Shown: positions 33,282 through 39,883 of the stretch, piece after piece
Layout of the letters: each line of letters starts with the position of its first letter
How positions within the stretch are numbered: position 1 is the stretch's first letter
Sequence record: NC_048002.1
DNA: 39,883 nucleotides
Strand: one strand, 5' to 3'
DNA from: Escherichia phage SRT7
Program-made: the position numbers and the translations under genes
Notes under the pieces: model-generated
Told to the model about the DNA's origin: nothing
The model's database searches: none
Seen by the model: only the letters and a program-made list of their open reading frames with translations

Positions 33282-33303
33282 GTTCCCTATAGTGTGGGTT
33301 AAT
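33282..33303 (-). promoter_or_regulatory. Phage RNAP promoter (phi1.1A-like; GGGAAC variant)
   Basis: Minus ATTAACCCACACTATAGGGAAC. Confidence 0.8.
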
Positions 33304-33348: not shown

Positions 33349-35997
33349 TTAGGCGAACGCAAAGTCAGACTTTAAGATTTCCTGAAGATTCAGAGACCCT
33401 TTAGCTGGAATCGCTGGCATCTTCTCAAGCTGACTTTCGTGAAGCTGGTCGTAGAACTGGTCGTAGAACTCTTGGATTACGTCATGCTCCTCATAGGTCT
33501 CCACAAGGGTCTCACGTACTGCGTTAAACAGGTTGCGAGCGTCTGCGGCTACCGTACCGAAGCTATCGTGAATCAGAGCGAACGACTTAATGCCATACTT
33601 ATTGTGACCGTGCACTACCGTCTGACGCAGGTGGCTACCATCCATGCTGTGCACGAAGTTAGGCGCAATCCCGGACTCCTGTTTGTGTGCGTCAATCCCG
33701 CTATCCTTTGTTGTGTTGATGGTCAGAGCCATGCGAATCTTACCAAGGAAAATCAGGTCGAGACGCTTCTGGACTGGCTTCTTGTACTCCTGCCACACAG
33801 GGAACCCATCAGGAGTAACCCAATGTACAGCACAGCGGTTGCGCAGGATTGTCCCGTCCTTATCCTTCACCTCAGCGGCTAACAGCTTAGCAGCACTCTG
33901 GAGCCACTTCATGGCATCAACCGCAGCCACCACAGTGACACTTACAGCTTCCCAGATGAGCTTCGCCATGTAACCTGCGGCTTGGTTCGGCTGGGTAAAC
34001 ATGAGGCCCTTCCCGTTGTCAATAGCTGGACGGATGGTGTCCTCCAGTACTTGGTCACGGAAGCCATACTCTTTGGAACCATACGCCAGCGTCATGACAG
34101 AACGTTTAGTGACCCCACGGTTGACCCCAAAGGCCAGCCACTGACCAGCCAGCTCGCGAGTACCCAGCTTAGGCTTCTCGGTAATCTCACCAGTGGTCTT
34201 ATTGGTAATCACTTCGATTTCGTTGTCGGTCCCGCCGATAGCATCAGCCTGAAGACGGATGTTAACCTTGTCGGAGACGATACGATAGATATCCTGCACG
34301 GTCTCGCTCGGTAGCAGGTTAACTGCACGACCACCAACCTCATCACGCAGCATAGCAGAGAAGTGCTGAATCCCTGAGCATGAGCCATCGAAGGCCAGCG
34401 GCAGAGAGGACACGTAGGACTTACCGTGACGGAACGCTCCAGCGTACTCAAAGCAGAACGCGAGGAAACAGAACGGTGAATCTTGCTCGGCCCACCAAAG
34501 GTTCTCTAAAGGAGCCTCAGCGCAAGCCATAATATCTGCGTGGTGACTCTCAATGAAGTCGATGCGCTCCGGGAATGGGACCTTATCAACACCTGCGGTA
34601 TTCGCACCGTGAATCTTCAGCCAGTACATTCCGTCCTCACCGATAGGCTTGCCAGTGGCGAACGTCAGGAGGCCCTTTGTCATATCGTTGCCCTGTGGGT
34701 TAAACATCGGGCAAGCATACACGCGACCGCGCCAGTCTAGGTTGTACGGGAACCAGATTGCCTTAAACTGTGCAAACTTATTGGCCTGACCGAGAGCGAA
34801 CTCGAGGGACAGGCGCTTAGACACGCGAGCCTTATCCTGACGATACACGGCTGCGGCTGCTTTCTTCCACGACTTGAGAGACGCTTCATTCGTGTCGATG
34901 TCCTCAGGTTTCTCCGGGAGTTCTTTACGCTCCAGCGCTGGGATATCCTCCACCGGACAGTTCTTCCAGTTGACCACCTGATTGACGACCGCCAGAACCT
35001 TCGTGTTAATCTTCCACGCTGTATTCTGAGCGATGTTTACCGCTTCATATACCTCAGGCATAGACACATCGTTGTAGCGCATGAGAGCCTTACGAGAGCC
35101 TACACGAATCAACTGAATCGGCTTACGACCAGCCGCCCAATAGCCGCCACCTTCGATGGACGTCCAAGGTTTCGGAGGGACTACACAAGGTTGATACATT
35201 GGTGCGATTGCAGCCAGTGCCCCAGCGCGTTTACTGATAGCTTCTACCCATTCGTCAGCCAGAAAGACAAACTGACCGTCTGACTTAACGTTCCCGGCGT
35301 TCATACGCTCGACCTCAACGAGACCTGTAGACTCAATAAGCAATTCAAGCATCTTGATACCTGTGTGCTCCAGCTCCTCGGTGGTCCAGTGCTCCCACGT
35401 GGATTTAAGCTCTTTGCGCTCAATCATCTGTTTCTCTACGACCTGCATGTAAGCCTTTTTGTAGAGCAAGCCGTTGCGCTTGTTGAGCCCGTCCTCTACG
35501 TACTTCTTAAAGAACTTGGCTTCCTCATCACGGATACGACCGAAGCGTAACTCATCTTCGATTGCACGACCTATGGCGAACGCTACGTTCTGCATTGATG
35601 CCAGTTCCTGCTTGGCTACCTGTGCCAGTGTCTGCTTGACCACGATTGCCGCACAGTTGTCGGCTTTGATTGCCGCTGTGGTCTTTGTAGCTACGTGCTT
35701 ACGTCCTTTCTTCACGCGCATCTCTTCGTGCCACTCAGTGAAACGAGCAGACAACCGAGGGATTAACGTCTGGACTACACCTTTAGCCGCTGCGTTATCT
35801 GCAAACTCGCCAGCCTCAATCTGACGCTGTAACTGCTTATGGAAACGCTTCTCACCTTCCGTGTATGCCTCGTGCTCTAACTCAAGTTGAACAGCCGCCA
35901 GATGTTCGCCGTAATGGTCTGCCAATACGTTGAACGGTTCGATATCGTGTTTGATATCAGAAAAGTCATTCACTGCCGGATTAATTACGTTGCTCAT
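33349..35997 (-). CDS. gp1: Single-subunit DNA-dependent RNA polymerase (T7 gp1-like)
   Basis: 882 aa; extensive identity to T7 RNAP including catalytic HDSFGT and C-terminal FAFA. Confidence 0.97.
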   Translation of the reverse strand: MSNVINPAVNDFSDIKHDIEPFNVLADHYGEHLAAVQLELEHEAYTEGEKRFHKQLQRQIEAGEFADNAAAKGVVQTLIPRLSARFTEWHEEMRVKKGRKHVATKTTAAIKADNCAAIVVKQTLAQVAKQELASMQNVAFAIGRAIEDELRFGRIRDEEAKFFKKYVEDGLNKRNGLLYKKAYMQVVEKQMIERKELKSTWEHWTTEELEHTGIKMLELLIESTGLVEVERMNAGNVKSDGQFVFLADEWVEAISKRAGALAAIAPMYQPCVVPPKPWTSIEGGGYWAAGRKPIQLIRVGSRKALMRYNDVSMPEVYEAVNIAQNTAWKINTKVLAVVNQVVNWKNCPVEDIPALERKELPEKPEDIDTNEASLKSWKKAAAAVYRQDKARVSKRLSLEFALGQANKFAQFKAIWFPYNLDWRGRVYACPMFNPQGNDMTKGLLTFATGKPIGEDGMYWLKIHGANTAGVDKVPFPERIDFIESHHADIMACAEAPLENLWWAEQDSPFCFLAFCFEYAGAFRHGKSYVSSLPLAFDGSCSGIQHFSAMLRDEVGGRAVNLLPSETVQDIYRIVSDKVNIRLQADAIGGTDNEIEVITNKTTGEITEKPKLGTRELAGQWLAFGVNRGVTKRSVMTLAYGSKEYGFRDQVLEDTIRPAIDNGKGLMFTQPNQAAGYMAKLIWEAVSVTVVAAVDAMKWLQSAAKLLAAEVKDKDGTILRNRCAVHWVTPDGFPVWQEYKKPVQKRLDLIFLGKIRMALTINTTKDSGIDAHKQESGIAPNFVHSMDGSHLRQTVVHGHNKYGIKSFALIHDSFGTVAADARNLFNAVRETLVETYEEHDVIQEFYDQFYDQLHESQLEKMPAIPAKGSLNLQEILKSDFAFA

Positions 35998-36020: not shown

Positions 36021-36072
36021 CTTCACTCTCAGAGGCCACCGCTTGGCGACCTCTTGAAGTGTAGACTATCAG
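36021..36072 (-). promoter_or_regulatory. RNase III-type processing hairpin (R1-like) between kinase and RNAP genes
   Basis: Minus RNA CTGATAG...GAGGUCGCC-AAGC-GGUGGCCUC with lower stem CACU/AGUG; overlaps kinase stop. Confidence 0.5.
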
Positions 36073-37223
36073 CCCATAAACATTGCGTCAAGACGCTTAT
36101 CAATATCAAGCGGTCTGCCCATATTGATTTGCTCTACCATTCGGTTGTGGCGCTCCACGTTCTTCTCATGGATGACCCGGATGCCGTTCCTGTGGTGAAT
36201 CTTAAGACCCTCAGGGATTGCCCACTTCACACCGCGACCACAGATGTACTTAGCGTCCGGCTTAATTCCTACCACCAGTTCCCACGCTCGGTCATCATCC
36301 TTGCGAACCATATTGGCTTTCGCTTGGCGTTCTTCACGCTCGGCTCTAATCTTAGCCAGTTGAATCTTACGGCGGCGATGTGCCTTTCGGTTCTCCAGCT
36401 TGTTCAACTTACGGAGGTGACGTTGTTGCCACTTCTCAATAGCTTCCTCAAGTTTCATCGCTTGGATTTCCTCAAGTAGCGCCTCAAAGTCTACCCGGAA
36501 GTCATCCGGCTCACCGAGACCGTTTGTGTAGCTCACCGGGTCAGTGATGACGATGTTGTCGTTATGGTCCAGCATCACGTTACCTTCATGCATGTCGAAG
36601 CCAGCCACCCCATAGAAGAACTCGCGGATGTGCGCTGCGGTTCCCTGTAGACCCTGAGTGACCTCATCGTATGCCTCGCAGAAGTCCCATGCGTCACTGT
36701 CGCGATTCAGAATCTGAGTCTTCACGATGTTGTACTGGTCGAGGACTTCAGGTGACTTTGCACTGTATGGCTTAAGGTGGTCCAGAACGACCGTGTAACA
36801 GGCATCATGTCGTGCAATCGCATGGATTACTGGCAACCCTTGTAGACCCGGATTAGCTCGGCAGAATGCAGCGTACGCAGCGCCTGAGTCTTCTTTCTTA
36901 AAGCCCACCTTAATGACGCGACCCGGCAGACTTACGTGGCTGAATACTGCACTGAAGAATCCATTCCCTAGGAACGTATAGCCCAGCTCGCGAGCCATCG
37001 CCACCAGCGAACCCCACCAGTCCTGTGAGTTAACGAACTCGGTATCGTCCACGCCACAGCCGCAATCAGTCTCGTAGTTTACAAGGTCAGCAAGAATACC
37101 CACGAGACCCGGTTGGCGTTCATCGAGTCGGTCGATAGGTAGCGCTTTCAGTGCTTTCATTCGGTACTCAAGTGCTTGATACACGGTAGGGACCACGTGA
37201 TGTGCTGCGTTCATTGGGTTCAT
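36069..37223 (-). CDS. gp0.7: Serine/threonine protein kinase, host shut-off (T7 gp0.7-like)
   Basis: 384 aa; NGHFSA/NGFFSA, RVIKVGFKKEDSGAAY, FDMH.GN, ITDPVS and C-terminal DKQLDAMLMG-type blocks as in T7 gp0.7. Confidence 0.9.
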   Translation of the reverse strand: MNPMNAAHHVVPTVYQALEYRMKALKALPIDRLDERQPGLVGILADLVNYETDCGCGVDDTEFVNSQDWWGSLVAMARELGYTFLGNGFFSAVFSHVSLPGRVIKVGFKKEDSGAAYAAFCRANPGLQGLPVIHAIARHDACYTVVLDHLKPYSAKSPEVLDQYNIVKTQILNRDSDAWDFCEAYDEVTQGLQGTAAHIREFFYGVAGFDMHEGNVMLDHNDNIVITDPVSYTNGLGEPDDFRVDFEALLEEIQAMKLEEAIEKWQQRHLRKLNKLENRKAHRRRKIQLAKIRAEREERQAKANMVRKDDDRAWELVVGIKPDAKYICGRGVKWAIPEGLKIHHRNGIRVIHEKNVERHNRMVEQINMGRPLDIDKRLDAMFMG

Positions 37224-37247: not shown

Positions 37248-37604
37248 TTAGAATGTTACAGATTCGTGGATTGTGCGGGTTACAGTGATGCCACCGGCAA
37301 GCTCTACAGCGTAGCGAATAGCCTCCTCTTTGGTGCGGAAGTCCCGTCCAGATACATGATAGGTGTCACCATTAACCACGTTATCAGGCTTACGGGCTAC
37401 GCTCACGGCATTAGATAGACTAAGCACTCCGTTGCGGTAATCCGTCACCCACTTATTGAGGCTCGGGACGGACACGCCAAGCTCAACAGCCAAACTTGTA
37501 GTTCCTGTCTTCCCGCGAGGGCCATCCGGTAGTGCAAGGTAACGCTGTACGGCTGCAATGCGGAAACCTACGGTGTACATAATGCGAGTATTGATGGTAG
37601 TCAT
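37248..37604 (-). CDS. Hypothetical helix-turn-helix protein (118 aa), early region
   Basis: GGAGA RBS; segment FRIAAVQRYL...GTTSLAVELGVSVPSLNKWVTDY resembles IS3 OrfA / HTH_Tnp_1-type DNA-binding motifs. Confidence 0.7.
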   Translation of the reverse strand: MTTINTRIMYTVGFRIAAVQRYLALPDGPRGKTGTTSLAVELGVSVPSLNKWVTDYRNGVLSLSNAVSVARKPDNVVNGDTYHVSGRDFRTKEEAIRYAVELAGGITVTRTIHESVTF

Positions 37605-37625
37605 TTGGTATCTCCAGAATATTAA

Positions 37626-37823
37626 TTAGTGAGTTGCTACGTAAAACATCCCGACCTTATTGGCCTTAAAGCGCCCATTCGGTTCCCGTACAGTGAATCG
37701 CGGCAGGACGTACCATTTGAAGTACGCTAGGTTCGCGCTGTGTACAATGAGACCCTTACGGAAGTCTCGCACAAAGAGAGCCACAATGGCTGCGTACACT
37801 GCTATGATGAAAGCTATAGTCAT
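37626..37823 (-). CDS. Small membrane protein (65 aa), early region
   Basis: N-terminal hydrophobic helix TIAFIIAVYAAIVALFV; GGAGACC RBS. Confidence 0.65.
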   Translation of the reverse strand: MTIAFIIAVYAAIVALFVRDFRKGLIVHSANLAYFKWYVLPRFTVREPNGRFKANKVGMFYVATH

Positions 37824-38312: not shown

Positions 38313-38765
38313 TTAGATTACCTCCCAGATACGCCCTTCAGCGTCCATTGTGTAGCACTCACCCTCAGGTGCATCCACTTGCTGGAAGGAGCCATTCAGT
38401 CGAGTCGCCTTGTACCCCTCCAGACCCTTACAGAACAGTAGACCAGCGGTGTGAGTCTGTGACTTATAAACCATCACACAGTCTTGCTCAAAGTCATTAC
38501 AGGCCAAACGTGCCACGTTGATAGCTTGCGCCTTGTTGTCACACAATACACGATAGGTGCGCTCGGTGGTAGCGACCTCCTGACCCTCTTCACGATAGCA
38601 GCCAGTCAGACCAGTACACTCAAGGACACCGTAATATTCCGGCTCAGCCTGTAAGAGCGCCTTAAGGTCCAGTTGACGTGCCATGTTGACCATATCGGAC
38701 AGGTTAGCACGTGCAGCGGAGACCAGTACATAGAATTTGTTAGCTGGTTCGTTCGTGTAAATCAT
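38313..38765 (-). CDS. gp0.3: S-adenosyl-L-methionine hydrolase/lyase (T3 gp0.3-like SAMase, anti-restriction)
   Basis: 150 aa; EPAN.FYVLVSA...DLTGCYRE...KAQA.NVARLACN..EQDC..VYKSQTHTAGL matches recalled T3 SAMase; first gene after early promoters. Confidence 0.85.
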   Translation of the reverse strand: MIYTNEPANKFYVLVSAARANLSDMVNMARQLDLKALLQAEPEYYGVLECTGLTGCYREEGQEVATTERTYRVLCDNKAQAINVARLACNDFEQDCVMVYKSQTHTAGLLFCKGLEGYKATRLNGSFQQVDAPEGECYTMDAEGRIWEVI

Positions 38766-38990
38766 GATGTTTCTCCATAGGTTAGATTAGTGATTATCAT
38801 AATGGGACACTGGACGCTCATCTTGAGCCCGTCTCGCGGTAGTCTGTTACAGTGCCCATGAGTTAATCGCTATTGTCGCTATCGTTCTCATGAGTGTTGA
38901 TTATCCAAATTGTTAAAGAACATTCGGTTCATCCAGAGGGAATCACCTAGACCCTTTCAGTGTCGGTCATCACGTTGCTTGTTGGACACT

Positions 38991-39019
38991 AAGTTACTAC
39001 GCTAAGTACACATTGTCAA
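38991..39019 (-). promoter_or_regulatory. Candidate host sigma70 early promoter (A3-like)
   Basis: Minus TTGACA-17nt-TAACTT; near-duplicate of the promoter at 39153-39181. Confidence 0.5.
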
Positions 39020-39066
39020 GCTATTTGTTCACTTAGCGTAGCACCTTAAGTATCGTGCTAATCGTT

Positions 39067-39091
39067 CACCTCAGGTATTCGCGCTGAGGCA
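39067..39091 (-). promoter_or_regulatory. Stable hairpin in early leader (possible processing site)
   Basis: Plus cacctcag-gtattcgcg-ctgaggca; 8-bp stem on minus RNA including two GU pairs; followed by CATGTAG..TATCAG resembling the RNase III motif family. Confidence 0.35.
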
Positions 39092-39152
39092 CCGCATAGA
39101 CCATGTAGTTTATCAGTTCGGTCTCGCTGTACTGCTGTGTTGCTTGCTATCT

Positions 39153-39181
39153 AAGTTACTGCGTTTCGTTCTGCATGTCAA
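39153..39181 (-). promoter_or_regulatory. Candidate host sigma70 early promoter (A2-like)
   Basis: Minus TTGACA-17nt-TAACTT. Confidence 0.5.
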
Positions 39182-39305
39182 CACTTTATTTCGTTAGGTG
39201 GCTCTGCGTAGTTCCTTAGGCGTTCTATCGTGTGGACTCGAACCCGTCAACCTATCAGACCACTTAGAGACGCTATCGCAGCGTGTCGTCGTGTTGATGG
39301 ATGCT

Positions 39306-39334
39306 ATTAAGCCATAGACCGATGAGGATGTCAA
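39306..39334 (-). promoter_or_regulatory. Candidate host sigma70 early promoter (A1-like)
   Basis: Minus TTGACA-17nt-CTTAAT; spacing to A2/A3 candidates (~150 bp) mirrors T7 A1-A3. Confidence 0.4.
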
Positions 39335-39384: not shown

Positions 39385-39406
39385 GCTCCTTATAGTGTGG
39401 GTTAAT
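39385..39406 (-). promoter_or_regulatory. Phage RNAP promoter (phiOL-like; AAGGAGC initiating variant)
   Basis: Minus ATTAACCCACACTATAAGGAGC, ~300 bp inside the left terminal repeat. Confidence 0.7.
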
Positions 39407-39708: not shown

Positions 39709-39883
39709 AGGGACTGAGGCATAACCAAATGTCACCAAAGGTCTCCCAAATGTCACCAAATGTCTCACCGCACCACCTCAGGAGAACCAAAGGTGAACTG
39801 AAAGAGGAACCAAAGGGGAAAGGGACACCAAAGGTGAACTGAAAGAGGCCTATGGGGGAACTTTGGGAGTTGTATCTTTGAGA
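39709..39883. repeat. Direct terminal repeat, 175 bp, identical to 1-175 (phage left-end copy)
   Basis: Exact match to the first 175 nt of the window. Confidence 0.95.

Follow-up and report, generated by a model that had tools for sequence, protein, structure and literature searches.

A transposase-type helix-turn-helix protein with a conserved orphan C-terminal module in the early regions of T7-like phages

Expression in T7-like phages begins with the left-end early genes, and almost every one of these that has been characterised, for example Ocr, SAM lyase, Gp0.4 and Gp0.7, disarms the host or takes it over. OrfA-type proteins of insertion sequences are small helix-turn-helix (HTH) regulators that carry a C-terminal oligomerisation element, and AcrIIA1 is a bifunctional protein in which an HTH repressor forms the N-domain and an inhibitor forms the C-domain. 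Aca repressors are HTH proteins encoded beside anti-defence effectors (PMC9410906), and T7 Gp5.7 is a small winged-HTH repressor of host-RNAP promoters on the phage genome (PMC5569994). What is new in the present analysis is a conserved tail: a 118-aa protein of Escherichia phage SRT7 (NC_048002.1; the window is the whole stretch of 39,883 nucleotides that was analysed) joins a transposase-type HTH to an alpha/beta module that is conserved yet matches no known family, an architecture of phage early operons.

The protein differs from each of these systems in its own way, beginning with IS3 OrfA. Its N-terminal HTH is like that of IS3 OrfA and PF01527 proteins (IS629 OrfA, 2rn7; Cgl2762, 2jn6), but where an IS3-family OrfA continues into a leucine-zipper or coiled-coil segment, residues 74-118 are modelled as a hairpin and a helix and belong to an unrelated alpha/beta module. 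Moreover, the ORF has neither a frameshift site nor an adjacent orfB/DDE transposase gene, no inverted repeats were found flanking it, and it is part of the early operon of a lytic phage; the IS3 OrfA type proposed in the sequence-only reading thus holds for the HTH domain and fails for full family membership. T7 Gp5.7 is likewise small, belongs to a T7-type phage and carries an HTH; by acting in transcription takeover it sets a precedent for a possible role, but it is a class-II gene product with a winged HTH and no equivalent of the C-module, and no sequence relationship to the 118-aa protein was detected. With AcrIIA1 and the Aca repressors the protein shares a logic, an HTH coupled or adjacent to an effector, in that its family includes versions with the C-module alone and versions in which the HTH carries another C-terminus; there is no sequence or fold similarity to these proteins. 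Among the canonical T7/T3 early proteins 0.3-1.3, no Pfam or PHROG match to the 118-aa protein was obtained.

The source genome is that of a Foetvirus-type T7/T3-like phage, read on the minus strand, and it is most closely related to Escherichia phage P1723 (genus Foetvirus), which is 96% identical at the nucleotide level over the early region and whose copy of the protein is 99% identical (QKM75933.1). The 118-aa ORF that had been described as having a good ribosome-binding site is present together with its GGAG element (Table 1), and the peptide segments quoted for it were found in its translation; its position by a kinase gene and a small early ORF is also as described, with a 0.6A-like ORF before it and a gp0.7-type kinase gene after it. 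Relative to the metagenomic locus L014, whose product is 95% identical in amino acids, the ORF shows 18 synonymous and 6 non-synonymous changes (dN/dS 0.10), and 19 of the 24 differences fall at third codon positions. Homologues at 45-50% identity are found in several other genera. Taken together, the dN/dS value, the ribosome-binding site and the homologues across genera establish the 118-aa ORF as a real gene under purifying selection. As a side observation, the neighbouring kinase matches PHROG 2828 at E 1e-100, yet has no significant Pfam match in the copy used; its homologue in the metagenomic contig L005 bears the precomputed family PF27024 Phage_T7_kinase, and the missing match seems to come from the version of the library and not from the biology.

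Table 1. Coordinates of the 118-aa ORF, its parts and neighbours, and related loci (coordinates without a prefix are those of the window)
Feature	Coordinates	Strand	Basis or remark
118-aa ORF (HTH + C-terminal module)	37248-37604, stop included	minus	ORF list, ATG start
Shine-Dalgarno GGAG	37612-37615	minus	sequence reading; 7 nt 5' of the ATG
Three-helix HTH_Tnp_1 / homeodomain-like domain, residues 10-58	37431-37577	minus	
Linker motif, residues 59-73 (GVLSLSNAVSVARKP)	37386-37430	minus	alignments A1, A2
C-terminal module, residues 74-118	37251-37385	minus	alignment and AF2 model; no known family
0.6A-like 65-aa ORF (phrog_2385)	37626-37823	minus	transcribed just before the 118-aa ORF
gp0.7-type kinase gene, 384 aa (phrog_2828)	36069-37223	minus	transcribed just after the 118-aa ORF
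Gene 1 (RNA polymerase)	33349-35997	minus	downstream of the kinase gene
SAM lyase gene	38313-38765	minus	
Three sigma-70-type early promoters, -35 TTGACA (39014-39334 overall)	39329-39334, 39176-39181, 39014-39019	minus	sequence reading
Phage-polymerase promoter, phiOL-like	39386-39405	minus	pattern search; upstream of the early promoters
Next phage-polymerase promoter	33283-33302	minus	pattern search; downstream of gene 1
23-nt imperfect inverted repeat	38990-39012 and 39026-39048		flanks the -35 of the third early promoter
Genome-end direct repeats	39725-39766 and 39786-39848		
P1723 copy of the protein	L001:2117-2473		
Dev2 gp0.2	L003:759-1076		
IMEP24 'Ocr'	L004:1275-1835		
P0021, stand-alone C-module gene	L015:2825-2995, L016:951-1121		
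22-nt palindrome upstream of the L005 homologue	L005:659-680		

By analogy with T7 A1-A3, the three TTGACA promoters should drive the early operon that holds the 118-aa ORF; a consensus promoter scan, at the thresholds used, did not return them. A pattern search with the phage RNA-polymerase promoter consensus TTAACCCACACTATAGGGAG gave 12 sites, all on the minus strand and ranging from 567-586 to the phiOL-like copy, where 0.08 would be expected. Set beside the T3 and T7 consensus sequences, it is T3-like in its upstream half (AACCC) and T7-like in its start region (ACTATAGGGAG), and the copy upstream of the host-type early promoters resembles T7 phiOL. Because host-type promoters stand upstream of the ORF and the next phage promoter comes past gene 1, the ORF lies inside the class-I (early) transcription unit, and the promoter layout points to its early expression. 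The end of the genome also holds short direct repeats, a 21-nt tandem pair CCAAATGTCACCAAAGGTCTC and a 22-nt pair ACCAAAGGTGAACTGAAAGAGG 41 nt apart, which resemble the arrays beside T7-type terminal repeats.

For the N-terminal half, two AlphaFold models concur on a three-helix, homeodomain-like HTH fold, with helices at residues 12-23, 32/35-42 and 46-57 and a pLDDT of about 85 in the better model. Against Pfam HTH_Tnp_1 (PF01527), the 118-aa protein itself scores 16.5 bits (E 0.01), which is below the gathering threshold of 24.1 bits; the family is matched by 16 of 17 close relatives and by 24 of 27 diverse aligned relatives (best E 3.5e-10), and precomputed matches to it are on record for P0018, P0020, P0032 and P0035. 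The diverse relatives also match HTH_23, HTH_28, Brinker and CENP-B_N, of which the Brinker and CENP-B N-terminal domains (eukaryotic, transposase-derived homeodomain-like HTHs) are like the 118-aa protein in fold class only, a likeness that says nothing about function apart from DNA binding. No PHROG family is matched by the protein, and its relatives match phrog_151 'transposase' and phrog_17819 (function unknown). Similarly, NCBIfam returned zero matches for the protein and, for the SH3 homologue, weak N-terminal ones only, to IS3, IS66, IS630 and IS481. A PDB sequence search with the family profile yielded weak matches only, the best being the RacA HTH (E 0.029), and one with P0069 yielded nothing meaningful; Foldseek against the PDB gave HTH matches of the same kinds as the profile searches, none below E 0.1, and the BFVD viral structure library returned only the family's own members. 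On the strength of the family-level PF01527 matches and the agreeing three-helix models, the N-terminal half is supported, at the level of family and fold, as an HTH of transposase-OrfA type, and such a domain would be expected to bind DNA. The profile search and structure prediction that had been proposed as a check thus recovered the HTH fold; the HTH_Tnp_1 pattern noticed earlier stands by virtue of the relatives and the models, and the window's own protein stays below threshold.

The names under which the family is already in the databases are 'hypothetical protein', 'Transposase' and 'F-box protein'. The P1723 copy is annotated as a 'putative F-box domain-containing protein', a name that is unsupported, since none of the family searches returned an F-box family. 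'Transposase' is the automatic UniProt name of the SFPH2 (BFVD A0A345AV87) and Phoria (A0A3G8FJI6) homologues, and reflects the HTH_Tnp_1-type N-terminus alone, the catalytic domain being absent. One source's label for P0069, 'SiR5 protein', could not be traced in the literature, in which no paper was found on the family of the 118-aa protein or on the early genes of P1723.

Between the HTH and the C-terminal module lies a linker whose motif, written as G-x-L-S-L-S-N-A-V/I-x-V-x-R-K-P or as G-x-L-x-L-x-N-A-I-A-V-S-R/H-K-P, is kept even in distant relatives with other C-termini. The segment has a net charge of +2 and low confidence in the AlphaFold model, and the weak NCBIfam alignments of the SH3 homologue to IS630 and IS481 extend through it. 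The linker is probably inherited from the basic stretch located behind the first HTH in the N-terminal regions of transposases, and may contact DNA.

The C-terminal module is modelled by AF2 as a beta hairpin (residues 82-89) and a helix (residues 92-102), with a pLDDT of 77-79 for both, and without confident placement of the last 14 residues (GGITVTRTIHESVTF); the segment G-G-I-T-V-T-R is probably a strand, and the last 14 residues probably form one or two strands. In comparison with Kayfunavirus-type homologues, residues 1-58 are 27% identical and residues 59-118 are 64% identical, so that, judged by sequence identity, constraint on the protein is stronger in its C-terminal 'tail' than in its N-terminal half. 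A PDB profile search with the module found no solved relative, and a word-indexed profile search gained only P0021 and a 31-aa fragment. The description of the tail as being of unknown type is upheld, as residues 74-118 belong to no known family and give only a sub-threshold match to DUF2188 (PF09954; 13.4 bits, E 0.089, against a gathering threshold of 22 bits), which covers about 18 residues (88-105) and lays the helix of the module (…F.TKEEAI.YAVELAGG) on profile positions 24-41. Matches to the same family, again sub-threshold, were obtained for 6 of the 27 relatives (best E 0.03). DUF2188 is itself uncharacterised and has been tied to defence islands through gene neighbourhood in two papers.

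The protein is rare. A tblastn search found it in 22 of 50,697 phage records, namely P1723, the Przondovirus VLCpiA3d, two Pectobacterium phages and roughly a dozen isolates of Kayfunavirus that include SH3, GW1, SFPH2 and Mt1B1_P3; the set contains no record under the name T7 or T3, which agrees with the earlier placement of the gene outside the canonical T7 early set. The flanking DNA, with the 0.6A-like ORF and the kinase gene, matches 820 records, and in Dickeya phage Ninurta these two genes are immediately adjacent to each other. When 1.84 billion representative proteins were searched exhaustively with the profile, only 53 matches were obtained at E <= 0.001, several of the weaker of which are long multi-stretch alignments and likely spurious, and a locus search with alignment A1 recovered only four Kayfunavirus-type loci. 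All recovered contexts are early regions of Autographiviridae-type genomes, in which the slot varies. The gene is the first one, before ocr, in Klebsiella phage VLCpiA3d and in the T7-like metagenomic contig L005; it follows ocr in SH3, and it stands between 0.6A and 0.7 in the source phage and P1723. In the permuted short contig L006 no called gene separates it from the terminase-end genes, and it probably opens the early region; in the Phoria-like contig L007 one gene stands between it and the tail-spike gene, at a place where the early region seems to begin. The comparison of presence and absence across related phages that had been called for therefore describes a rare and patchy gene confined to early regions, and its behaviour is that of a small mobile cassette of these regions that brings its own ribosome-binding site along.

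Such patchiness, along with an HTH of transposase type and the automatic name 'Transposase', might be taken to indicate an orphan OrfA that is functionless for the phage, left over from an insertion sequence or another selfish element and in decay. This explanation is very improbable, because the gene is under strong purifying selection, its neighbours are the 0.6A-like ORF and the kinase gene with neither a DDE/OrfB gene nor flanking inverted repeats, its C-terminal module is not of transposase type, and no homologue exists among 72,556 plasmids, all the recovered contexts being phage early regions. Selection, context and the lack of a transposase led to the rejection of both the transposon-remnant and the non-coding readings.

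In other phages, four independent in-frame deletions have left products that retain the C-module without the HTH. Dev2 gp0.2 is a fusion of the first 46 residues of SAM lyase to the C-module, the IMEP24 'Ocr' is an Ocr-like protein fused to the C-module, and in P0017 a 41-aa upstream ORF is joined at helix 3 and runs on into the C-module; the fourth, P0021, is a stand-alone 56-aa C-module gene located directly after SAM lyase in three contigs. The junctions show microhomology of 1-3 residues and occur in Kayfunavirus-type early regions, and the dN/dS of the C-module among the deletion derivatives is 0.04-0.21, although part of this divergence may predate the deletions. The database names 'SAM-dependent methyltransferase' and 'DNA mimic ocr' cover only the N-terminal fragment of the fusions. 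Most family members retain the HTH, and some depart from the common architecture in other ways: P0023 is a frameshifted copy with the HTH only, a coiled-coil-like tail replaces the C-module in two distant relatives alone (P0029 and P0044), and P0025, P0026, P0054, P0061 and P0048 (129-164 aa) carry an extra N-terminal HTH before the HTH and C-module, a tandem form that has no isolate in the phage collection. Since the frameshifted P0023 and an ESh23 copy annotated as mutated both exist, the gene is dispensable.

That the HTH-less derivatives are retained and conserved invites an explanation in which the C-module is itself the effector, an inhibitor or sponge acting against a host defence or housekeeping factor, and the HTH is an optional autoregulatory add-on in the manner of AcrIIA1. 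The gene is among the first to enter the cell, beside Ocr or SAM lyase, and the weak C-module similarity to DUF2188, with its contextual link to defence islands, would fit the same picture; however, that similarity is short and below threshold, PADLOC-DB gave no defence-system match for the 118-aa protein or three relatives, no solved relative is at hand, and most members keep the HTH, so this account is considered unlikely. It is doubtful that the C-module is a new stand-alone early effector of the Autographiviridae, a host-factor inhibitor or immune-signal sponge to which the transposase-type HTH would be attached as an exchangeable part for regulation or DNA tethering.

A further feature of the early region bears on what the HTH might recognise. 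The imperfect inverted repeat at the third early promoter is 83% complementary, and its RNA form has a folding energy of -30 kcal/mol (z -4.8), a stability equalled by 0 of 200 shuffles; its role might be that of an operator or of an RNA-processing hairpin in read-through transcripts. A plain dimeric transcription factor would suit the former role: the C-module would be an oligomerisation domain that replaces the leucine zipper of IS3 OrfA, and the protein would repress or tune the phage early promoters, in an Aca-like damping, or a few host promoters. Such a reading matches the architecture of IS OrfA proteins and the coiled-coil-like tails of P0029 and P0044, and draws on the bracketing of the third -35 in the source phage and P1723 and on the homologue gene lying directly upstream of ocr in two phages. 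The palindrome, however, is common only to these two phages and absent from the other HTH-bearing phages examined, and its half-site has 7 matches genome-wide against 2.8 expected (3 of 100 shuffles reach 7), which is not a clear enrichment; on both grounds it is no more than a lead and is not attributable to the HTH. At the same time, a dimerisation tail should not outstrip the DNA-reading head in conservation, as it does here, and a pure dimerisation domain is unlikely to be retained in-frame and under selection in four HTH-less lineages, one of them stand-alone. With the derivatives weakening it in this way, the plain-dimer interpretation is judged somewhat unlikely. In a separate observation, the L005 homologue is preceded by a 22-nt palindrome, GTCATTAGGTATACCGCATGAC, about 70 nt upstream of its start codon, which is a possible autoregulatory site.

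The explanation that is tentatively preferred, with slightly less than an even chance of being right, is that of an early protein that docks on DNA and uses its conserved C-module to contact a conserved partner, in the service of host takeover or counter-defence. The HTH would dock the 118-aa protein on DNA, the short basic linker (…SLSNAVSVARKP) would follow it, and the C-module of about 45 residues, with a beta-beta-alpha(-beta) arrangement, would contact the partner, for which a host protein is the likeliest candidate; early host takeover or counter-defence, and not transposition, would then be the purpose of the gene. Binding to DNA and expression in the early phase, like the partner and the role, are what we infer. 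This DNA-docking explanation is favoured by the reality of the gene, its steady early-region placement, the constraint on the C-module and the four HTH-less derivatives, and it is weakened by a C-module that is only moderately modelled and has no relatives, by fold or sequence, that would hint at a partner, by the sub-threshold Pfam score and missing PHROG match of the 118-aa protein, and by the dispensability of the gene. It may also be that in the full-length protein the C-module merely dimerises the HTH.

On present evidence, the 118-aa protein is an ordinary uncharacterised HTH protein and not a demonstrated new mechanism. The analysis corrects database names that mislead, 'F-box domain protein' for P1723 and 'Transposase' for SFPH2 and Phoria. 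If the C-module were indeed a stand-alone effector, the family would be AcrIIA1-like, with an effector half that works alone, as in Dev2, IMEP24 and the 56-aa P0021. The natural HTH-less derivatives mark the minimal candidate piece, and the combination of a rare early-region cassette with a conserved 45-residue orphan module makes the gene a reasonable candidate for a new function in host takeover or counter-defence.
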